Of a stretch of 64,000 nucleotides of DNA, positions 42,860-51,351 are shown piece after piece. Position numbers and translations under genes: made by a program. Location: contig CAZXCU010000001.1 of the NCBI GenBank assembly GCA_964639245.1, positions 876,521 through 940,520 on the forward strand. The letters run 5' to 3'. Under the pieces are notes generated by a model that was given only the letters and a program-made list of their open reading frames with translations, did not search any database and was not told the DNA's origin. This stretch comes from an uncultured Anaerolineae bacterium. Its GTDB lineage: Bacteria; Chloroflexota; Anaerolineae; Aggregatilineales; J027. Numbering within the stretch: position 1 is the stretch's first letter; each line of letters starts with the position of its first letter.

Positions 42860-44095
42860 CTATCCTACTCCAACCGTTTTTTGCCAGATTATTAAATTGC
42901 CAGCATAGTCCGCGCTGGCGAGATAATTGCCATCGGGACTCCATTGAAGAAAAGTTACTATCTCTTCATGTTGATGCAGCGTAGCCACCTGCTGTTCTAA
43001 CTCGATATCCCAAATGTGAACTTCGTGATATCTATTTTCGCTAAAAGGATCAACAGGCGTTTCAGCAAAATACTTCCCATCATGGGTAAGTGATGTGAGG
43101 ATTGTGGTATCATCAAAATCAATTTGAAATAATAATTTTTGTCCAAATTTATCCCAAAAGTATATATGGCGTAACTCAGCGATAAGGCAATAATTTCCTT
43201 CTTTATCCCACCCATAAGCATAATGAGTTCTAATATCTGGCATATCAAAAACGCTGATGGCTTGTTCGCTCTCAAAATCCCATAAAGTGAGATAGCCTGT
43301 AAAGCGCTGTGTATCTGCATGACGAGTAGTGATTAAAGTGCCGTTAGGATTCCATTTAGCTTCCCATAAAGTCATTTTGGTGATAGAGGTCATTTTTTTA
43401 ATCAATTTATTGGATGAAACTTCCCAGATTTGAAGCTCTAAACCATTAGCGATAGCGAGATATTCCCCATTTGGACTCCATGTTGTGTCATAGGCATTGG
43501 ATGAATAAATCGAGGCAGTATTTGACTCAAGAAATTTCCATACTTTTCCATCATAAGCAATTGAATCGCTCATTGGACTCCATACAAAAACATCAATATT
43601 TGTATTGGTTAAGACTGCGCGTAAATTACCTGTACTATCCCATATTTTCAGTGTTTTATCTTGACTGTAGGTTGCCAGATATACCCCATTTGGACTCCAA
43701 TCCGCCTGTAGTATGAGATCTGTATAACCTTGCAGGATTGCAACAGGTTGTTGTGCTGCTAATGACCAGATTTCTATTGTCGGTGCATTGCTATACCAGA
43801 TTGCAATCAGTTCACTATTGGGATGCCATTGCCAGTTCACCTCACTTGCTGCTGTATCTAACAGGACATTACCAGTGGCTACCTCGTAGACTCTCATTCT
43901 GCTTGAATTTCTTTCGATTGTTCCGTCCAGCATATACGCGATAATTTTTTGGCTGTCAGGACTCCATTGCATCGGTTGGTTAGTATTCGCATCAATAGGG
44001 AGGTTGAGTTGGAGAATGTCTATCCATGTGACGTTATTTTGGACGGGTAAAAAGGAACTTATTAAAAAGATAGCCAAGCTGATTCTTATTAGCAT
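42860..44095 (-). CDS. Secreted WD40/beta-propeller repeat protein
   Basis: Signal peptide and >=7 repeats with W-S-P-D/N-G signatures (WSPNGEYLA, WSPDGNYLA, WSPNGVYLA). Confidence 0.7.
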   Translation of the reverse strand: MLIRISLAIFLISSFLPVQNNVTWIDILQLNLPIDANTNQPMQWSPDSQKIIAYMLDGTIERNSSRMRVYEVATGNVLLDTAASEVNWQWHPNSELIAIWYSNAPTIEIWSLAAQQPVAILQGYTDLILQADWSPNGVYLATYSQDKTLKIWDSTGNLRAVLTNTNIDVFVWSPMSDSIAYDGKVWKFLESNTASIYSSNAYDTTWSPNGEYLAIANGLELQIWEVSSNKLIKKMTSITKMTLWEAKWNPNGTLITTRHADTQRFTGYLTLWDFESEQAISVFDMPDIRTHYAYGWDKEGNYCLIAELRHIYFWDKFGQKLLFQIDFDDTTILTSLTHDGKYFAETPVDPFSENRYHEVHIWDIELEQQVATLHQHEEIVTFLQWSPDGNYLASADYAGNLIIWQKTVGVG

Positions 44096-44103
44096 AAAAA
44101 TCC

Positions 44104-44559
44104 TTATGGGGTAGCCAGAGGTGAAATGAGAGAAATTCTGTCCCCGAAACGCTTCATGTCATCAATGTTAATGGTCAATAGGGTGTCAATGCCGTGTACC
44201 AGCATCGTGGCAACGATATTGGCATCATGAATTTGCTTGCCAATTGTCGGATATTCTTTCAAAAGTTGCAGCAGTTGCTCGGTGGTTTGTTGAGTTTCGT
44301 CTGCGGCACGGAACAATGTCTGGATGTTTTGTACATACTTAATGCGTTGTTCTATAGACATTTGAATTTGGAGCGTGTTGGGATGCGTCGCTTGAACCAG
44401 ATATTCTCGAATGATTTGGCGACTAATCCATAATTCAATATTATCATTCCACATTTTATCCACAATAGCGAGACATTCTTTATGATGTGGTAATGTGCTG
44501 TATATCGCTCGTAACAGCACATTCGTATCAACAAACGCTTTAGCGCCCCTCATCGTCAT
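44104..44559 (-). CDS. vapC: PIN-domain toxin (VapC family)
   Basis: FVDTNVLLRA N-terminal PIN acidic motif; 20-bp overlap with the upstream small antitoxin gene. Confidence 0.75.
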   Translation of the reverse strand: MTMRGAKAFVDTNVLLRAIYSTLPHHKECLAIVDKMWNDNIELWISRQIIREYLVQATHPNTLQIQMSIEQRIKYVQNIQTLFRAADETQQTTEQLLQLLKEYPTIGKQIHDANIVATMLVHGIDTLLTINIDDMKRFGDRISLISPLATP

Positions 44560-44767
44560 ACCAATCCTCGCGCCTCACGGATGGTTCATTTTTCATCGGA
44601 ATATCGCTCACTATTGCGTTGAGTAACGCCTTGCGTTCTTGGTTTGTTAATTCGCGCTGTTGAGAGACCCCCTGCAAATGGGCAATTAAGTCGGCTTTTT
44701 TATCGGGTGGAAGCTGCTTGGCTAATTCGACCAGTGTTTCAAATGGAATTTGCAATGTCACCGTCAT
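44540..44767 (-). CDS. Putative antitoxin of the VapC module
   Basis: 75-aa protein immediately upstream of and overlapping the PIN gene. Confidence 0.5.
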   Translation of the reverse strand: MTVTLQIPFETLVELAKQLPPDKKADLIAHLQGVSQQRELTNQERKALLNAIVSDIPMKNEPSVRREDWYDDEGR

Positions 44768-44883: not shown

Positions 44884-46953
44884 GTGTTTATGCTGACGGT
44901 TGGGGAAAAAATTCTCTTTTTCATTTTCGCGTTGGCGGCGTTGGGCGTGGCTGCCGATGGATTCTGGAAATTGTGGCTCATCATCAACCGGGGGGAAGGC
45001 AAACTCCACTGGGATGAACTGCCCGCCCGTGTGTTCAAAGCGCTGCGGGTCTATCTCTCGCAGGAAACCACCCTCAAAACCCGCCCAACCACCAGTTTAT
45101 TTCATCTCGGGGTGGTGTGGGGGTTTACCTTCTATTTTCTGGTCAACGCGGGCGACCTGCTCGAAGGCTACATCGTGGATTTCAAATTTTTAGGCGACAC
45201 CCTGCTAGCCGATGCTTACCATTTTGTCGGTGATATTTTGAGCGTGGTCGTGCTGGTCGGTGTGTCCTATTTTATTCTGCGGCGGTTTGTGCTGCCGAAT
45301 AAAAAAGAATTGCAGTACCACGAAAATGTGCTGCTGCATCCGAAAGTCGCTGCTGGTGCTGTCACACGCGATTCGCTGATTGTGGCGAGTTTTATTCTGT
45401 TGCATGTAGGTTCGCGTTTTCTCGGTGAATCGACCAAAGTAGAGCTTGGTTTGCGTGATGCCGAATTCATGCCGTTTGCGACAGTCGTGGGCGCGGCGAT
45501 GGGCGAAATTTTCAGCGAAGGCACACTCGAAATTTTTGAACACCTTTTCTGGTGGTTGGCATTGGGTGGAATCGTTGCGTTTTTGCCGTATTTTCCCCAG
45601 ACCAAACACGCCCATTTGTTCATGGCTCCGTTTAACTTCCTGACCCGTCCACACCGCACCTCATTAGGCGAAATGGACTTTTTAAATCTGGAAGATGACA
45701 CCAGAGAACAATTCGGTGCGGGCAAAATTGAACACCTTTCCAAAACCGCCATTGTGGACGGATTCGCCTGTATCATGTGCAATCGATGTCAGGATGTGTG
45801 TCCGGCGTATACCACCGGCAAGGAATTGTCGCCCTCCGCTTATGAAATTAATAAGCGCTTCATGATAAAAGACGATTTTAACCTGCTGGCGATGTTCGAT
45901 ACCGAGTCTACCCATAAATTGATGGGAACTGCCATCAGCGAGTCGGCGGTGTGGGCGTGTACGGCGTGCGGGGCCTGTATCGAAATTTGTCCGGTGGGCA
46001 ACGAACCCATGATTGATATTTTGAACATCCGTCGGGATGCCGTTTTGATGGAAGGCGCATTACCGGGCGAACTCCAAACCGCAATTAACGGCATGGAACG
46101 GCAGGGCAATCCGTGGGGCATTTCCGAACCGCGTTTTGTCTGGGCAAAAGATATGCACGTTCCCACTGTCGAAGAAAATCCCAACTTTGAGATTTTGTAC
46201 TGGGTAGGCTGTGCGGCCAATTATGACCCCCGCGCTCAGATTACCGCCCGTTCGTTTGTTAAGATTCTGGAAAAAGCCGGGGTCAATTTCGCGGTGTTGG
46301 GCGAACGTGAGAATTGCACAGGGGACGTAGCGCGGCGAGCAGGCAAAGAAGATACCTATTTTGAACTCGCCACTGGCAACGTCGAAACCCTGAACGAAGT
46401 CAATCCACCGCGTATTGTTGTGACTTGCCCCCACTGCCTGCATAATCTGGGCAAGGAATATCATCAATTTGGCGGGAATTATGAGGTCATTCACCACACC
46501 CAACTGATTGATGAACTGATGGTAGCAGGCAAAATCCCCGAAAATGCGTGGCCTAAAAAACTGCCGAATGTCACCTTCCATGACCCATGTTATCTCGGAC
46601 GGCACAACGAAGTCTTTAACGCGCCGCGTACCATCCTCAACAAATCCAACGCCGAACTGATTGAAATGCCGCGCACCCGCGAAAATTCTTTCTGCTGCGG
46701 GGCAGGTGGGGCGCAGTTCTGGAAAGAAGAAGAACATGGCACGGAAGCCGTCAGCGTGAATCGGCTCAAAGAAGCAACGGCAACCGGGGCGGAAGTGCTG
46801 GCGGTGGGCTGCCCCTTCTGTATGCAGATGTTCAATTCTGCCAAGGGAGAAGTGGAAGGCGCACCCGAAATTAAGGACGTGGCAGAACTCATCGCCGATA
46901 ACTTGTCCGATTTTGTGCCTGTGACAGCGGCAGCACCCGCACACCACCACTAG
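44884..46953 (+). CDS. Membrane-anchored (Fe-S)-binding oxidoreductase with two 4Fe-4S motifs and two CCG domains (HdrD/GlpC/DsrK-like)
   Basis: N-terminal ~5 TM helices; CIMCNRCQDVCP and CTACGACIEICP ferredoxin motifs; CPHCLHNL and FCCGAGG CCG-domain cysteines. Confidence 0.75.
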   Translation: MFMLTVGEKILFFIFALAALGVAADGFWKLWLIINRGEGKLHWDELPARVFKALRVYLSQETTLKTRPTTSLFHLGVVWGFTFYFLVNAGDLLEGYIVDFKFLGDTLLADAYHFVGDILSVVVLVGVSYFILRRFVLPNKKELQYHENVLLHPKVAAGAVTRDSLIVASFILLHVGSRFLGESTKVELGLRDAEFMPFATVVGAAMGEIFSEGTLEIFEHLFWWLALGGIVAFLPYFPQTKHAHLFMAPFNFLTRPHRTSLGEMDFLNLEDDTREQFGAGKIEHLSKTAIVDGFACIMCNRCQDVCPAYTTGKELSPSAYEINKRFMIKDDFNLLAMFDTESTHKLMGTAISESAVWACTACGACIEICPVGNEPMIDILNIRRDAVLMEGALPGELQTAINGMERQGNPWGISEPRFVWAKDMHVPTVEENPNFEILYWVGCAANYDPRAQITARSFVKILEKAGVNFAVLGERENCTGDVARRAGKEDTYFELATGNVETLNEVNPPRIVVTCPHCLHNLGKEYHQFGGNYEVIHHTQLIDELMVAGKIPENAWPKKLPNVTFHDPCYLGRHNEVFNAPRTILNKSNAELIEMPRTRENSFCCGAGGAQFWKEEEHGTEAVSVNRLKEATATGAEVLAVGCPFCMQMFNSAKGEVEGAPEIKDVAELIADNLSDFVPVTAAAPAHHH

Positions 46954-47129
46954 ATTAAGATTTTTAACTGAAGGCGGCGCTGGTCGCCTTCATTGTAATA
47001 CCCCATTTTTAAAAGTTGTCATCGAGAATCGCGTGTTTCCCACACTTTCCCACACTTCTGGCATTTTCCCCTATAATTTATCGTTTATGTTGCAAAAAAT
47101 GTGGGAAAAAGTATGGGAAACTGTGGTAA

Positions 47130-47157
47130 TTGACAAACTTTATTGCCTCCGTATTAA
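47130..47157 (+). promoter_or_regulatory. Sigma-70-like promoter (TTGACA-16 nt-TATTAA) in the AT-rich spacer upstream of the vapBC/hicB cluster; a second TATAAT at 47240-47245
   Basis: TTGACA 47130-47135, TATTAA 47152-47157. Confidence 0.4.
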
Positions 47158-47268
47158 GGTACAACTTCACTATCGCGTAAAACGAGTCATCGATCTTGCA
47201 AATCTAGCCGATTGCCAAACTGGGGAAGGGTTTATTGGTATAATGCAGCATAGAAAGGTAGGTGAAGC

Positions 47269-47502
47269 ATGTCAGATATGATGGTCAAAGTGGATGTACT
47301 TCAATTGGTGTCGCAACTATCGCGGGAGGAAAAAGAACACCTGCTGCGTTATCTGGAAAATGAGTTTGGGATTTTCCCGCGTCCCATCATGGAAATTACA
47401 CCGCCTATGACCGAAGAAGAAGCGCGTGCATTCGCTGATGAATTAGGAAAGGCTGGGCCAATTTCTCATTACATTATTGAAGAAAGGCAAGAAGGATATT
47501 AA
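47269..47502 (+). CDS. Putative antitoxin of the VapC module
   Basis: 77 aa, AGGTAGG SD, stop overlaps the start of the PIN gene (TAATGG). Confidence 0.5.
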   Translation: MSDMMVKVDVLQLVSQLSREEKEHLLRYLENEFGIFPRPIMEITPPMTEEEARAFADELGKAGPISHYIIEERQEGY

Positions 47503-47963
47503 TGGCAATCTATTATATGGATTCTAGTGCCTTAATAAAACACTATCTCACAGAAAAAGGTTCAAATTGGATCAATAACCTCTTTGACCCTATGCAAGGA
47601 AATTTGCTTTATATTTCACGAGTCACCGATGCTGAATTTGCTAGTTCGCTTTCTCGAAGAGTGCGAGAAGGGGCAATTTCACAAGCTGACCATGCAAATT
47701 CGTTAAATCGGTATTTTTACCAGCAATTGGTATTTCTGAGAATAGTTGAGATGGATACTGCTTTAACCGCAAAAGCAGCTCAACTAACTTTGACACGGGC
47801 GTTACGTTCTAACGACAGTATACAACTTGCCAGTGCCATAAAAATCAATGCGCTTTTTGTAACCTATAAAGCAAGTCTGATTTTCTTATCTGCCGATGTT
47901 CGTCTATTAGCGGCTGCACAGGCGGAAGGGCTGCTTGTAGATAATCCTGAGAATTATCCGTAA
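47502..47963 (+). CDS. vapC: PIN-domain toxin (VapC family)
   Basis: MAIYYMDSSALIKHYL PIN N-terminal motif; ~40% GC by eye. Confidence 0.8.
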   Translation: MAIYYMDSSALIKHYLTEKGSNWINNLFDPMQGNLLYISRVTDAEFASSLSRRVREGAISQADHANSLNRYFYQQLVFLRIVEMDTALTAKAAQLTLTRALRSNDSIQLASAIKINALFVTYKASLIFLSADVRLLAAAQAEGLLVDNPENYP

Positions 47964-47982
47964 TTTTTAGCAGGAGTTTTTC

Positions 47983-48183
47983 ATGTCCACACGACACATT
48001 TTGATTTATCCCGGTGAAGATGGGTATTTTGTGGTGGAATGTCCGAGTTTGCCGGGCTGTGTGAGTCAAGGCAAAACCCGTGAGGAAGCCATCGAAAATA
48101 TCAAAGAAGCAATTGAACTTTATATTGAAGATTTGATTGAAACTGGGGATGAAGTATCTAAGAATTGGAATTTATGTCTTTAA
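47983..48183 (+). CDS. hicB: HicB-family antitoxin (UPF0150), orphan with no adjacent HicA
   Basis: ILIYPGEDGYFVVECPSLPGCVSQGKTREEAIENIKEAIELYIEDL is a near-consensus HicB N-terminal RNase-H-like fold sequence. Confidence 0.8.
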   Translation: MSTRHILIYPGEDGYFVVECPSLPGCVSQGKTREEAIENIKEAIELYIEDLIETGDEVSKNWNLCL

Positions 48184-48310
48184 TTTTTATCTACATGAAA
48201 ACTACATTTTGTTTGAAATTTATTACAAAATGAACATTAGTTCTTTACTATCATCCAAAATATGATACGCTTGCATAAACTTCATGGGAAAATTAAGAGG
48301 TGGTGTTTGT

Positions 48311-48916
48311 ATGTCGAAGAAAAAGGACAAAAGTAAAAATTTAAATGGTTATTACATTCAAATATTTAGCCCTAATGGGAGCTATGAAAGCGAAATAAAC
48401 AAAGGACAACACGATAAGGTAATGTTGTTTCTGCTGACCAACTCAAATCTCCCGTCGTCTATTAATTTAACTTCGCCCATCGAAGAATCTAAAATTGACA
48501 ATCAAGTTGCAAACAAAACTAATGAAAATCCACAAACTCGGCCTCTGCGTAGAAAAACCCGTCAGGATACATACACTGTTGTAAAAGACTTAGATCTTGT
48601 AAAAGGAAAAGATGGTGTAAGCCTACAAACCTTTTACAATCAATATAAAGCAGATACGATATATGAAAAAAATGTATTGTTTGTTTACTACCTTAAAAAT
48701 TATTTAGGAATAGAACAGGTCAATGTAAATCACATATTCAGCTGTTATAAAAAACTTGGTGTTAGATTACCCAGTTTACTAAAACAGAGCATTTTAGACA
48801 CTGCAAGTCGTCAAGGTTGGCTTGATACTTCTACAACCGATAATATTCGGTTGACTGTTTCAGGAGAAAATGCTGTTGAGCATGACATTAAGAAAGCGGA
48901 TGTAAAATCTGAATGA
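48311..48916 (+). CDS. Hypothetical protein A of the AT-rich cassette: Lys-rich disordered N-terminus and C-terminal wHTH-like domain paralogous to the N-terminus of protein B
   Basis: AAGAGGTGG SD 6 nt before ATG 48311 (the track ORF begins at 48284). C-terminal VLFVYYLKNYLG...NHIFSCYKKLG...DNIRLTVSGENA aligns with DLVKYFLYFITV...DIRNCFQELH...SGYRLERSEEQ of the next protein. Confidence 0.5.
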   Translation: MSKKKDKSKNLNGYYIQIFSPNGSYESEINKGQHDKVMLFLLTNSNLPSSINLTSPIEESKIDNQVANKTNENPQTRPLRRKTRQDTYTVVKDLDLVKGKDGVSLQTFYNQYKADTIYEKNVLFVYYLKNYLGIEQVNVNHIFSCYKKLGVRLPSLLKQSILDTASRQGWLDTSTTDNIRLTVSGENAVEHDIKKADVKSE

Positions 48917-49680
48917 AAGATAGTTTGAACCGCCTTATATCACTTCTCCCTCATATAGATACTGATAATGGACGAGATTTAGTAAAGTATTTTTTGTACT
49001 TTATAACTGTCGAAAATAATCAATCTAGCGCTACTGCCTCAGATATTAGAAACTGCTTTCAAGAGTTACATATGACTCCTTACACTCGAATTAGTCAATT
49101 CCTAAGCGAAGGTAGTAGCCGTAAGTATATGAAGAAACCTATATTTGTAAGAGTTGGAAAATCAGGTTATCGGTTAGAAAGAAGTGAAGAGCAACGTATA
49201 AAAGAGTTGGTAAAAACCGAACCAATTAAGGTACATACTAGCAAAACATTGCGAGAACTTTTAGATAATTTAACTTTAGAAAGAGAAAGGCAGTTCCTAG
49301 AAGAAACCATTAGATGTTATGAAGTAGATGCTTATCGAGCAGCTATTGTTATGGGTTGGATTCTAACGCTTGACCATTTATACGAATATATTATCAACCA
49401 TAAATTAACGGACTTCAATTATGCAATGAGTAAAAATCAGGGAATAAAATTATCTAAAGTAAATAATAAAGATGACTTTAGCAGTCTTAAGGAGAGCGTG
49501 TTCATAGATGTTTGTAGATCAGCAAATATTATTTCAAACGATGTGAGAAAAATCTTAGACCAAAAACTTGATATTCGTAATTCTGCGGCTCATCCATCCA
49601 ATATTGCTATAGCAAAATTAAAGGCTACTGAATTTTTAGAAGACCTCGTTACAAATGTAATAGTAAAGTACCCTATCTAG
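48913..49680 (+). CDS. Hypothetical protein B of the AT-rich cassette: N-terminal wHTH-like domain and C-terminal HEPN-like domain with Rx4H motif (Abi-like putative RNase)
   Basis: 4-bp ATGA overlap with protein A; C-terminal KLDIRNSAAHPSNIAIAKL matches the HEPN / Abi_2 R-x4-6-H motif; strongly AT-rich. Confidence 0.5.
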   Translation: MKDSLNRLISLLPHIDTDNGRDLVKYFLYFITVENNQSSATASDIRNCFQELHMTPYTRISQFLSEGSSRKYMKKPIFVRVGKSGYRLERSEEQRIKELVKTEPIKVHTSKTLRELLDNLTLERERQFLEETIRCYEVDAYRAAIVMGWILTLDHLYEYIINHKLTDFNYAMSKNQGIKLSKVNNKDDFSSLKESVFIDVCRSANIISNDVRKILDQKLDIRNSAAHPSNIAIAKLKATEFLEDLVTNVIVKYPI

Positions 49681-49746
49681 CCTCTATCAAACGTCCCGCA
49701 AAAGTTGTAAATTAGAGACACAAAATTTCTCCCCGAAAGGCTTTGT

Positions 49747-51351
49747 ATGTGGTACAAAACCGCGATTTTTTACGAACTGTATCCCCGCGCCTATATGGAT
49801 GGGAATGGCGACGGCAAAGGGGATTTTATCGGTCTGTTGGATAAAGTTGACCATCTTGTTGAACTGGGAGTAGATTGTGTCTGGCTGACCCCGTATTACC
49901 CTTCCCCCCTGCGCGATGATGGGTATGATATTTCCGATTTTTACAGCGTTGCACCCGCCTTTGGCACGGTAGACGACCTCAAAAAAGTGATAGACCGCCT
50001 GCACGACTACGGCATTAAAGTCATTGCCGACTTGGTGATGAATCACACCTCCGACCAGCACCCGTGGTTTATCGAATCGCGCTCCTCACGGGATAATCCC
50101 AAACGCGATTGGTACGTGTGGAGCGACACCGACCAGCGTTATAACGAAACCCGTATCATTTTTCTGGATACCCACACATCCAACTGGACATATGATGAAA
50201 TAACAGGACAGTATTACTGGCATCGCTTTTTTGACCACCAGCCGGATTTAAATTTTGACAATGCTGAAGTCCGCGCCGAAATGCTCAAGGTGATTGATTT
50301 CTGGCTGGCACTGGGTTTGGATGGTTTCCGTGCTGATGCGATTCCCTATCTATTTGAGCGTGAGGGGACAAACTGCGAAAATCTCAAAGAAACGCATGAT
50401 TACCTCAAAGCGGTGCGCGCCCATATCGATAAAAATTGGCCGGGAAAAATTTTGCTGGCGGAAGCGAATCAGTGGCCGCATGAAACCCGTGAATATTTTG
50501 GCGATAACGATGAATTTCATATGGGGTTTCATTTCCCGGTCATGCCGCGTTTGTATATGGCGCTCAAGCAAAAAAGCCGCCAAAGCATTGTGGATATTTT
50601 GAACCTGACTCCGCCGATTCCAGAGTCGGCGCAGTGGTGTATTTTCCTGCGGAATCATGACGAGTTGACGCTGGAAATGGTCACGCCGGAGGAACGCGAT
50701 TTTATGTGGCGCGAATATGCCCCCGACCCGCGTATGAAATTGAATCTGGGGATTCGCCGCCGTTTTGCGCCCCTGCTGGAGAATGACCGCCGCCGGATGG
50801 AACTGATGAACGCCGAATTGTTCACCCTGCCCGGTTCGCCCATCATTTATTATGGGGATGAAATCGGCATGGGGGACAATATCTGGTTGGAGGACAGGAA
50901 CGGGGTACGGACTCCGATGCAGTGGGATAGCAGCCCCAATGGAGGATTTTCTGCCGCATCTGAAACCTATGCTCCGGTGATTGAGGATGACATTTTTGGG
51001 TATCAAAAAGTCAATGTGCATGACCAGCGCAGCGACCCGACGTCCTTTTTCAACACCATCAAACATATGATTCAGGTGCGTAAAAAATATCAGGCATTCG
51101 GATTAGGAACATTTACCTTTTGCCTGCCAAACAATGAGGCTGTCTTGGCCTACTGGCGCGAATATGAGACGGAAAAAATCCTGTGTGTGTTTAACCTCTC
51201 GGATGAGACACAATCCGCTGTTTTCGATTTGCCATCCGAAATGGGCAAAACGCCCCTCAATGTGCTGACGGGCGACTCGTTGCCCAAGATTGCCCATAGT
51301 GAATTGAGTCTGACGCTTGCCCCTTACGGGTACACTTGGTTGAAATTTTAA
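49747..51351 (+). CDS. GH13 alpha-amylase-family enzyme (trehalose synthase / maltose alpha-D-glucosyltransferase / sucrose-isomerase-like)
   Basis: WYKTAIFYELYPRAYMDGNGDGKGDFIGL, VIADLVMNHTSDQHPWF, GFRADAIPYL, FLRNHDEL catalytic regions I-IV of GH13. Confidence 0.8.
   Translation: MWYKTAIFYELYPRAYMDGNGDGKGDFIGLLDKVDHLVELGVDCVWLTPYYPSPLRDDGYDISDFYSVAPAFGTVDDLKKVIDRLHDYGIKVIADLVMNHTSDQHPWFIESRSSRDNPKRDWYVWSDTDQRYNETRIIFLDTHTSNWTYDEITGQYYWHRFFDHQPDLNFDNAEVRAEMLKVIDFWLALGLDGFRADAIPYLFEREGTNCENLKETHDYLKAVRAHIDKNWPGKILLAEANQWPHETREYFGDNDEFHMGFHFPVMPRLYMALKQKSRQSIVDILNLTPPIPESAQWCIFLRNHDELTLEMVTPEERDFMWREYAPDPRMKLNLGIRRRFAPLLENDRRRMELMNAELFTLPGSPIIYYGDEIGMGDNIWLEDRNGVRTPMQWDSSPNGGFSAASETYAPVIEDDIFGYQKVNVHDQRSDPTSFFNTIKHMIQVRKKYQAFGLGTFTFCLPNNEAVLAYWREYETEKILCVFNLSDETQSAVFDLPSEMGKTPLNVLTGDSLPKIAHSELSLTLAPYGYTWLKF

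Follow-up and report, generated by a model that had tools for sequence, protein, structure and literature searches.

A candidate mobile toxin/immunity module pairing a HEPN protein with a winged-helix partner in an uncultured Anaerolineae bacterium

The DNA analysed here, called the window in what follows, is a stretch of 64,000 nucleotides from an uncultured Anaerolineae bacterium (contig CAZXCU010000001.1), and it contains two short genes, A and B, which together occupy about 1.4 kb (Table 1). They lie in the segment 48184-49690, which has a GC content of 0.327 compared with 0.493 for the whole window. A windowed run confirmed that this segment is the AT-rich outlier that the initial annotation had taken it to be, with the lowest GC content of all windows of 1507 nt (z = -4.36). 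The codon usage agrees, GC3 being 0.28 in gene A and 0.26 in gene B and 0.57-0.59 in the flanking genes, and the two-gene cassette is horizontally acquired. Both open reading frames, and the ATGA in which the stop of one overlaps the start of the other, are as first described. Although the longest start for gene A in the list of open reading frames is an in-frame ATG at 48284, we favour the start at 48311 because AAGAGGTGG sits before it. Both genes are real, with more than 476 database relatives for B and, from a profile search, 288 for A; an identical cassette is also present in a separate, independent sequencing run. Scans for promoters and terminators gave signals at background level only. 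As for marks of insertion, the window contains no tRNA, and the sole flanking direct repeat is a 9-nt identity at two start codons, which could have arisen by chance.

Table 1. Features of the cassette and of its immediate upstream context, in window coordinates
Feature	Position	Strand	Description
vapB-like	47269-47502	+	ORF; context, outside the module
vapC	47502-47963	+	PIN domain (E 3.8e-11); context, outside the module
hicB-like	47983-48183	+	HicB_lk_antitox (E 5.5e-13); context, outside the module
Shine-Dalgarno-like AAGAGGTGG	48295-48303	+	Precedes the ATG of gene A; from sequence
Gene A	48311-48916	+	201 aa, partner/regulator protein; intact ORF
A residues 1-43	48311-48439	+	N-terminal beta-hairpin and helix motif (alignments A2, A3)
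A residues 44-99	48440-48607	+	Disordered linker
A residues 100-190	48608-48880	+	Winged helix with acidic wing, homologous to the N-terminal domain of B
ATGA	48913-48916	+	B start codon and A stop codon, 4-bp overlap; read off the sequence
Gene B	48913-49680	+	255 aa, predicted effector; winged helix, connector helix, HEPN; Pfam PF27235 'AF_1680'
B residues 1-89	48913-49179	+	Winged helix with basic wing (+6 in the window copy)
B residues 90-119	49180-49269	+	Long basic connector helix between the domains; helix in the AlphaFold model
B residues 121-255	49273-49677	+	HEPN domain
R222-N-S-A-A-H227 codons	49576-49593	+	Predicted catalytic Rx4H motif

The cassette is flanked by vapBC, hicB and alpha-amylase-family genes. 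The low-GC islet as a whole (46954-49746) has a GC content of 0.363, and the segment that holds vapB, vapC and hicB (47269-48183) is intermediate at 0.405 and was therefore probably acquired separately from the cassette.

A core helix in proteins of the HEPN superfamily ends with an Rx4-6H motif, usually in the form R-[NHD]-x3-H. The AlphaFold model of protein B (pLDDT 89.6) has an all-alpha helical bundle as its C-terminal domain, and in this model the motif R222-H227 closes the helix formed by residues 209-226. R222, N223 and H227 are invariant in the alignment of the B family (A1, 28 sequences), and of the 80 genome homologues, 79 retain RN[S/T]xxH. The modelled fold and the invariant Rx4H motif together uphold the earlier assignment of B to the HEPN proteins, with one amendment: RNSAAH is present as reported, but it lies 28 residues ahead of the C-terminus rather than at the very end of the protein. 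Scores against curated HEPN models fall below their cut-offs (HEPN_RiboL-PSP, 17.6 bits for a cut-off of 28.4; DUF4145, 17.3 bits for a cut-off of 23.1), and the closest profile is PD-T7-3 (E 5.3e-6), to which the HEPN part only is similar, over profile positions 6-121 of 432. The connector helix that joins this domain to the winged helix has a mean charge of +2.6 across the family. Ribonuclease activity and toxicity of B are predicted.

The B family is not wholly new: Pfam already has it as PF27235, 'AF_1680', an uncharacterised family named for a likewise uncharacterised protein of Archaeoglobus. The assignment is a precomputed annotation, carried by the database entry identical to B (P0001) and by 120 of 120 relatives among those listed. 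A literature search for 'AF_1680' returned irrelevant results only, and the family carries no assigned function. While B is thus a member of a Pfam family, the A family has no entry.

Protein A has no match in Pfam, NCBIfam, PADLOC or the PDB, and none of its relatives from the profile search carries a Pfam domain. These relatives were collected with BLAST and HMM searches derived from the loci themselves, together with the profile search, instead of with a word-indexed search, whose low sensitivity yielded only 2. Sequence identity is low throughout, at 21-37% to the A proteins of other loci and 41-44% to the best database relatives. The initial annotation had described the N-terminus as Lys-rich and probably disordered. 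A disordered, K/S/P-rich linker does exist, but in the family it is preceded by a motif of about 35 aa that forms a beta-hairpin and a helix, with the consensus TKLxIDLxQGxIExEGxxxFVxxIYxDFK. In the window's copy this motif is degenerate and has gained a Lys-rich extension, so regulation by this copy may be impaired; I18, G23 and E28 are kept, and AlphaFold places strands at residues 14-20 and 23-29 and a helix at 31-43, with low confidence. The N-terminal module also differs across the family, some members having a helical motif or a double zinc ribbon in its place. The linker that follows is K/S/P/A-rich across the family with a mean net charge of +4.7, and in the model residues 43-77 have a pLDDT below 50. 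The C-terminal winged helix is the sole folded domain of A, and no enzymatic domain was found.

It is this winged helix that ties the two proteins together. The C-terminal domain of A and the N-terminal domain of B are homologous by hhalign (E 3.3e-6, replicated at 1.9e-5) and both are modelled by AlphaFold as winged helices, in line with the shared domain first proposed, except that in A it spans about 90 aa rather than some 70. Other effectors carry the B-type winged helix as well: variant proteins (P0329, P0341 and P0280) have it joined to a TIR domain, a Ymh HEPN or a type III REase-like nuclease. The TIR domain is of the CAP12/Pycsar type (PDC-S35, E 6e-83), and the gene for this variant also has an A-family gene upstream (E 5e-44). 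A profile of this winged helix (A5) finds 426 cluster representatives. The effectors seen are the AF_1680-type HEPN, a DUF4145-like HEPN, TIR, Ymh HEPN and the REase-like nuclease. The winged helix of B is the constant 'adaptor' domain, and the effector attached to it is swapped.

The pairing of A with B, for which the initial annotation could only propose a search, is conserved far beyond this genome. Of 80 loci, drawn from more than 10 phyla, 73 have an A-family gene immediately upstream of B, 5 have a different adjacent partner and 2 have none. The junction between the genes is -4 in 29 of 52 pairs and -1 in a further 6, thus one or the other in 35, and the two proteins co-diverge, with a Mantel r of 0.86 that none of 2000 permutations reached. 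No third conserved gene was found around the pair in the 80 loci. The region ahead of A showed no excess of inverted repeats: 6 of 61 loci were significant at the 5% level, and 72 of 500 shuffled sequences reached the 8-bp repeat of the window's copy. An operator, which a classical autoregulated type II toxin-antitoxin system should have, is thus not in evidence.

The distribution of the pair over more than 10 phyla is patchy and without synteny. Its immediate neighbours elsewhere are mostly housekeeping genes, with scattered PADLOC matches. Carriage by mobile genomes is rare: none of 50,697 phage records has the pair, IMG/VR yielded 2 contigs with it, and among 72,556 plasmid records there are 8, of which 7 belong to one Ralstonia megaplasmid lineage. 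On plasmid pLM19O1 the pair adjoins IS66 elements, a Phd/VapC pair and an integrase. The initial annotation had placed the cassette in a defence islet; the low GC content and the vapC and hicB matches of that islet stand, but the argument from a defence island is weak because the neighbours are mostly housekeeping genes and copies on phages, viral contigs and plasmids are nearly absent. Two loci, belonging to different phyla, have rtcB immediately upstream of the pair, and in one of these (L013) the pair lies between rtcB and rtcA. We count this linkage to rtcB and rtcA as a link of the pair with RNA damage.

Several known systems resemble parts of the cassette. With classical type II toxin-antitoxin systems it shares the bicistronic layout, the small size of both proteins, the upstream position of A, the -4/-1 junction, the patchy distribution and the foreign composition. 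HEPN toxins are known from HEPN-MNT (HepT/MntA), in which the antitoxin, the nucleotidyltransferase MntA, AMPylates its toxin, and from RnlAB and LsoAB, in which the antitoxins RnlB and LsoB are unrelated small proteins. Protein A has none of these antitoxin domains, and those toxins share no winged helix with their antitoxins. AbiV, a type III system whose antitoxin is an RNA and whose HEPN is a different one, has an unrelated architecture, and 'Dandelion-hepn' (PDB 9wx2) was set aside as a weak match (E 0.25 with a single sequence, 0.067 with a profile) for which no paper was found. In PADLOC-DB v2.0.0, A is unmatched and B has only the partial match to PD-T7-3; no named toxin-antitoxin, Abi or defence family fits the pair in PADLOC-DB, NCBIfam or the literature searched, which agrees with what was first claimed, and the main text of the HEPN census of Anantharaman (2013) mentions neither the family nor the pairing.

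The PD-T7-3 profile corresponds to DARNA, a demonstrated tRNA anticodon nuclease whose HEPN is auto-inhibited until a nucleic-acid cue, ssDNA, activates it (bioRxiv 10.64898/2026.02.22.705581). DARNA is the product of a single gene, about 430-456 aa long, with an N-terminal HEPN followed by a Pds5-like ssDNA-sensing domain of about 300 aa, and it forms dodecamers, whereas B has 255 aa, a C-terminal HEPN, an N-terminal winged helix, no Pds5-like domain and the partner A. The likeness is confined to the HEPN domain, and we reject membership of B in DARNA. Closer in logic is Retron-Kva2 (type IX), in which a winged-helix protein wraps around a HEPN toxin and lowers its toxicity, the outcome being abortive infection through cleavage of rRNA and tRNA (bioRxiv 10.64898/2026.07.14.738597). 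Here too a HEPN toxin is combined with a separately encoded winged-helix protein, but the retron depends on msDNA and a reverse transcriptase, Rx4-6H is absent from its HEPN, whose catalytic His and Arg stand on separate helices, its winged-helix protein has two extra HEPN-binding domains, and its HEPN protein has no winged helix; the A/B pair has a canonical RNxxxH in B and a winged helix common to both proteins. No reverse transcriptase was found in the window, no Rfam match in 46500-50000 and no conserved reverse transcriptase in the 80 loci. We thus rule out a type IX retron, given the lack of a reverse transcriptase and an Rfam ncRNA and the absence of Rx4-6H from the retron HEPN.

A third comparison is with the effector-associated domains (EADs) of NTP-dependent conflict systems, small non-enzymatic domains of which one protein has one copy and the product of the neighbouring gene a second, fused to varied effectors (Kaur et al. 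2020, eLife, PMC7159879). The ten EADs described are joined to large core components of NTPase, vWA or STAND type, and most are all-alpha (PMC7159879). The winged helix is likewise present in both adjacent products, and the copy in B is attached to interchangeable HEPN, TIR or restriction-type nuclease domains, with homotypic coupling predicted. Unlike the EAD systems, the shared domain of our pair is a winged helix, the 'core' is the non-enzymatic A of about 190 aa, and there are two genes with no NTPase, vWA, STAND or GTPase.

Because the pair is conserved across many phyla and no description of it was found, it is a good candidate for a new toxin/immunity module. The reading that we prefer, to which we give a probability of about one half, is that the cassette is a mobile two-gene 'conflict' module in which A inhibits the effector B until a cue arrives. 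In this model B would be a HEPN endoribonuclease, two copies of which would bring their Rx4H motifs together on dimerisation to form a composite active site, while the basic winged helix and the connector helix would probably grip the RNA substrate, for which tRNA or rRNA is the likeliest candidate. A would be the cognate regulator, whose paralogous winged helix might bind B through a contact between the two winged helices or might compete for the same site. In resting cells, B would be held inactive by A; a stress or infection cue, perceived through the variable N-terminal module of A and its basic, probably protease-labile linker, would then free B to cut host RNA and arrest growth. Physical binding through the winged helices is predicted, and the direction of regulation, the nature of the trigger and the RNA target of B are proposed.

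The invariance of R222, N223 and H227 and the proximity of the PD-T7-3 profile suggest that B is an active enzyme. That the two genes work as a unit is supported by the A-family gene ahead of B in most loci, the -4 or -1 junctions, the co-divergence and the lack of a conserved third gene. Protein A is probably antitoxin-like, as the product of the upstream gene, with a disordered linker and with translation probably coupled to that of B, and the retron Kva2, where a winged-helix protein acts on a HEPN toxin, offers by analogy a precedent for an inhibitory A. The swapping of effectors, the variable N-terminal module of A, the patchy spread, the foreign composition and the toxin-antitoxin neighbours are all hallmarks of conflict systems.

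The same two proteins could also work in the opposite sense, and we regard this as unlikely but deserving of weight. A would then be the sensor or scaffold of an abortive-infection system, and B alone would be auto-inhibited or monomeric; a phage cue, either protein or nucleic acid, would act at the N-terminal module or linker of A, causing A to oligomerise and to recruit B through the homotypic winged helices, and B, forced to dimerise or oligomerise, would become active by the logic of the EADs or of the CARD/Death adaptors. HEPN, TIR and REase effectors act only when oligomerised, and TIR and REase domains belong to the standard repertoire of defence effectors, whereas a type II toxin of either kind would be unusual. 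Both points speak for this model, and the TIR and restriction-type effectors and the variable N-terminal modules, which vary as sensor domains do, suit a sensor or activator no less well than they suit an antitoxin. The missing operator-like repeats upstream of A fit it too, as do DARNA, the nearest characterised HEPN, with its activation by nucleic acid, and the architecture itself, which is the one by which EADs are defined (PMC7159879). Against it, A, at about 190 aa and half disordered, lacks an NTPase or any other core that would drive oligomerisation, the gene order and the stop/start overlap look like those of antitoxin-toxin operons, the cassette is seldom found in defence islands or on phages, and in the only solved case of a winged helix with a HEPN that we found, the winged-helix protein is the inhibitor.

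Much less probable is a housekeeping or regulatory role, in which A and B are paralogous winged-helix binders of nucleic acid, A being a co-regulator and the HEPN of B serving in RNA processing or turnover, or binding a ligand without catalysis (cf. Roquin, MtlR-type). The mostly housekeeping neighbours and the copy within an rtcB-rtcA RNA-repair operon in L013 would suit such a role, but the family shows no variation at the catalytic R, N and H, the pair is scattered over phyla without conserved synteny and is of foreign composition here, copies of it are found beside toxin-antitoxin and IS elements, and the same winged helix is found on TIR and restriction-nuclease effectors. Least probable of all, by a small step, is that the family is real and the window's copy an inert remnant decaying after transfer with its function lost, as the degenerate N-terminal motif of A with its odd Lys-rich extension, the low identity of A to its relatives and a GC3 not ameliorated towards the host value might suggest, since both open reading frames are intact, the Shine-Dalgarno sequence and the ATGA junction are preserved, B keeps all invariant residues of its family, A keeps I18, G23 and E28 together with the invariant residues of its winged helix, and the identical cassette was recovered in an independent sequencing run.

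A broader reading, which we put forward tentatively and with somewhat more confidence than the sensor model, is that the cassette is one form of a widespread and undescribed combinatorial two-gene immune or toxin architecture, in which the winged helix is a homotypic adaptor like CARD/Death domains or EADs and the sensor modules and effectors are interchangeable, all without an NTPase core. The sensor modules would be the beta-hairpin motif, the helical motif and the double zinc ribbon, and the effectors two or three kinds of HEPN, TIR and a restriction-type nuclease. The linkage to rtcB and rtcA in a few genomes suggests that the HEPN version of this architecture may inflict RNA damage that can be repaired.

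HEPN ribonucleases are the effectors of Cas13, Csm6, RnlA, HepT, DARNA and several Abi systems, and for every one of these the chief open question is how the ribonuclease is kept silent and then set off. The pair described here is a minimal case, two small proteins in about 1.4 kb, a regulator and an effector with paralogous winged helices. For annotation it brings two families to name, A being without a Pfam, NCBIfam or PADLOC model and B known only as 'AF_1680', and its practical value is modest but real, the cassette being short and easily cloned. If the winged helices do couple homotypically, then the adaptor principle of CARD/Death domains and EADs would reach a two-gene prokaryotic system with no NTPase core.

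The stretch singled out in the initial annotation as AT-rich has a GC content of 0.327, where the window as a whole has 0.493; this is the minimum among all windows of 1507 nt (z = -4.36). It does hold the two proposed genes, both intact and overlapping by ATGA. GC3 is 0.28 in gene A and 0.26 in gene B, whereas the oxidoreductase and alpha-amylase-family genes on either side have 0.57-0.59. The toxin-antitoxin neighbours also bear out: VapC is a PIN protein by profile match (E 3.8e-11), and a 66-aa protein is HicB-like/UPF0150 (E 5.5e-13, with no more than the N-terminal half of HicB_lk_antitox, a profile of 123 positions, being covered) and an orphan, since no hicA-like ORF lies beside it. 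Because these vapB-like, vapC and hicB-like genes directly upstream have an intermediate GC content (0.405), the 2.8-kb islet is probably the record of at least two separate acquisitions.

An identical 9-mer, TTTGTATGT, occurs twice, 1436 bp apart (extended identity 15/18), spanning the start codons of gene A and of the downstream alpha-amylase-family gene; the two copies may be the trace of a recombination or an insertion, or may be accidental, since a stretch of 3 kb is expected to contain repeats of that length. Directly upstream of the vapB-like gene lie nested inverted repeats of TTTCCCACAC / GTGGGAAA units (21-nt arms, 81% complementary), a candidate VapB operator, to which Rfam gives weak and meaningless plant-miRNA hairpin matches. 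Judged from ORF translations alone, there is a second small-protein pair in the window, PIN-toxin-like with an overlapping upstream antitoxin-like gene, adjoined by a 411-aa repeat-protein-like gene with a GC content of 0.36-0.44.

Coordinates of the cassette, of neighbouring features and of related loci elsewhere (L-numbers)
Feature	Location	Strand	Remark
Repeat-protein-like gene	42860-44095	-	
PIN-toxin-like gene	44104-44559	-	
Antitoxin-like gene	44540-44767	-	
TTTCCCACAC / GTGGGAAA repeats	47035-47121		
HicB-like gene	47983-48183		
AT-rich cassette	48184-49690		
AAGAGGTGG	48295-48303	+	Shine-Dalgarno-like, precedes gene A
TTTGTATGT, copy 1	48306-48314		
Gene A	48311-48916	+	201 aa
Gene B	48913-49680	+	255 aa
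TTTGTATGT, copy 2	49742-49750		
A relatives followed by B'	L002:86-1390; L004:180-1478		
A-family gene, then winged helix-TIR fusion	L090:3401-5101		CAP12/Pycsar-type, PDC-S35
196-aa partner, then winged helix-nuclease fusion	L091:167-2443		type III REase-like, Pfam HI_1054
Plasmid pLM19O1 pair	L085:5381-6747		NZ_KM659091.1, Ochrobactrum
rtcB, A-B pair, rtcA	L013:2790-7139	one strand	Methyloglobulus MAG
rtcB-like gene, A with zinc ribbon, B	L083:2233-5714		Mucilaginibacter MAG

We predict that protein B is a HEPN RNase effector, with a probability of about 0.8. The C-terminal Rx4H motif on which this reading was first based stands firmly: R222, N223 and H227 (RNxxxH) are invariant in a 28-sequence alignment, as are E131, C135, R142, W149 and H155, and RN[S/T]xxH is kept in 79 of 80 homologues from genome loci, the exception being a truncated ORF. 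In the AlphaFold model (pLDDT 89.6), a winged helix (helices 20-34, 42-51 and 60-68; strands 78-81 and 85-88) is followed by one long helix, spanning residues 90-119, and then by an all-alpha remainder with RNxxxH at the end of helix 209-226. In a local copy of Pfam, B gave no more than sub-threshold HEPN matches (RiboL-PSP-HEPN, E 0.004; DUF4145, E 0.005); it matched phrog_27609 in PHROGs (E 1e-11) and nothing in NCBIfam, and in PADLOC it matched part of PD-T7-3 (positions 6-121 of the 432 in the profile, E 5.3e-6). PD-T7-3, renamed DARNA, is an ssDNA-activated HEPN tRNA anticodon nuclease with catalytic R117x4H122 (bioRxiv 10.64898/2026.02.22.705581), and its likeness to B is confined to its HEPN domain. 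The sole PDB sequence touched by the B profile, weakly (E 0.067, helices 113-199), is 'Dandelion-hepn' (9wx2, a solved 163-aa chain), for which we found no publication; it may derive from a defence system that is still unpublished and has a related HEPN domain.

Protein A matched nothing in Pfam, PADLOC, NCBIfam, PHROGs or PDB sequences, and a word-indexed search returned two relatives only, the closest in the database to the window's A, both followed by a 243-aa protein, B'. In its N-terminal half B' can be aligned with B (E 5e-13 at 26% identity); a helical domain of another kind, DUF4145-like (E 0.004), makes up its C-terminal half. At the position of RNxxxH this protein reads KKYADLAAH and, with Lys in place of Arg, may be another kind of HEPN or an inactive one. 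The A family alignment has three parts: an N-terminal motif of ~35 aa conserved across the family (TKLxIDLxQGxIExEGxxxFVxxIYxDFK; degenerate in the window's copy, which retains I18, G23 and E28), a K/S/P-rich linker (mean charge +4.7) and a C-terminal domain. The disorder once ascribed to the N-terminus fits the linker and not the motif before it, and the C-terminal domain, shared with B, is there, at ~90 aa instead of ~70. The wing is basic in B (family mean +3.8, +6 in the window's copy) and acidic in A (-1.6).

Across genomes the two genes travel together, as had been expected. Scanning one genome per species yielded 80 loci, in Alpha- and Gammaproteobacteria, Bacteroidota, Chloroflexota, Nitrospirota, Nitrospinota, Patescibacteria, Planctomycetota, Verrucomicrobiota, Acidobacteriota-related lineages, Thermodesulfobacteriota and Latescibacterota; directly upstream of B stands an A-family gene in 73, a different same-strand partner in five and nothing detectable in two. 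The two genes meet at -4 bp in 29 and at -1 bp in six of 52 pairs, and the A and B distance matrices are correlated (Mantel r = 0.86, a value reached by 0 of 2000 permutations). Clustering of all neighbouring ORFs at the 80 loci revealed no third conserved gene; most of the genes next to the pair are housekeeping genes, and only a handful match defence models. None of 50,697 phage records contains the pair; it was found on two IMG/VR contigs and, among 72,556 plasmid records, in eight. On pLM19O1, a divergent pair (B 32% identical, both genes annotated 'hypothetical protein') is flanked by IS66 elements, a DUF4238 gene, a Phd/VapC pair and an integrase.

Taken by sequence, the cassette is most likely a mobile toxin/immunity pair, in which A would be the cognate regulator of B, acting via the shared winged helix; that the two proteins touch physically is a somewhat better than even prospect. 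Should they do so, a little over half of the weight goes to A inhibiting B until a cue releases it. This reading is favoured by a gene order like that of antitoxin operons, by the overlap at the junction, by the disorder of the linker and by a precedent, retron Kva2, in which a winged-helix protein restrains a HEPN toxin (bioRxiv 10.64898/2026.07.14.738597).

In the main rival reading, A would be a sensor which recruits B and switches it on, as is the case with effector-associated domains (EADs). The A/B module shares the architectural pattern of EADs (Kaur et al. 2020, PMC7159879), although EAD systems have an NTPase core and this module does not. A profile of the B winged helix alone reached 426 cluster representatives (1.84 billion proteins), nearly always N-terminal in proteins of ~250 aa. 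Three longer ones carry other effectors, of which the TIR and the nuclease speak for this rival: a CAP12/Pycsar-type TIR domain (P0329; Pfam E 1e-38, PADLOC candidate PDC-S35 E 5.6e-83), a Ymh-family HEPN (P0341; E 1.9e-10) and the C-terminal part of a type III restriction enzyme (P0280; E 2e-35). Upstream of the TIR variant stands a clear member of the A family (E 5e-44); the nuclease variant has a different partner, with an N-terminal motif that by eye resembles the motifs of divergent partners at some B loci. The variable N-terminal modules of A (alternatively a beta-hairpin motif, a helical motif or a double zinc ribbon) and the absence of any enrichment of operator-like repeats upstream of A point the same way.

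A modest independent hint comes from rtcB (RNA ligase), which immediately precedes the pair at two of the 80 loci, in different phyla, two cases among 147 immediate neighbours against a rough, post hoc chance expectation of ~0.04; in one of them rtcA (RNA 3'-phosphate cyclase) flanks the other side. This adjacency suggests that the effector, predicted from sequence, may damage RNA, and in a repairable way.

The claim that the pairing is undescribed holds insofar as we found no paper describing it and no model for the A family in Pfam, NCBIfam, PADLOC v2 or PHROGs, but the B family, with more than 476 relatives of ~250 aa in a 5.8-billion-protein collection, is already catalogued yet uncharacterised: the newer Pfam family PF27235 'AF_1680', for which we found no literature, is on 120 of 120 relatives among the matches listed. 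By its predicted domains the pair belongs among the HEPN-based two-gene toxin/defence modules, and what sets it apart is an adaptor, a paralogous winged helix, that is common to A and B and is reused with other effectors.
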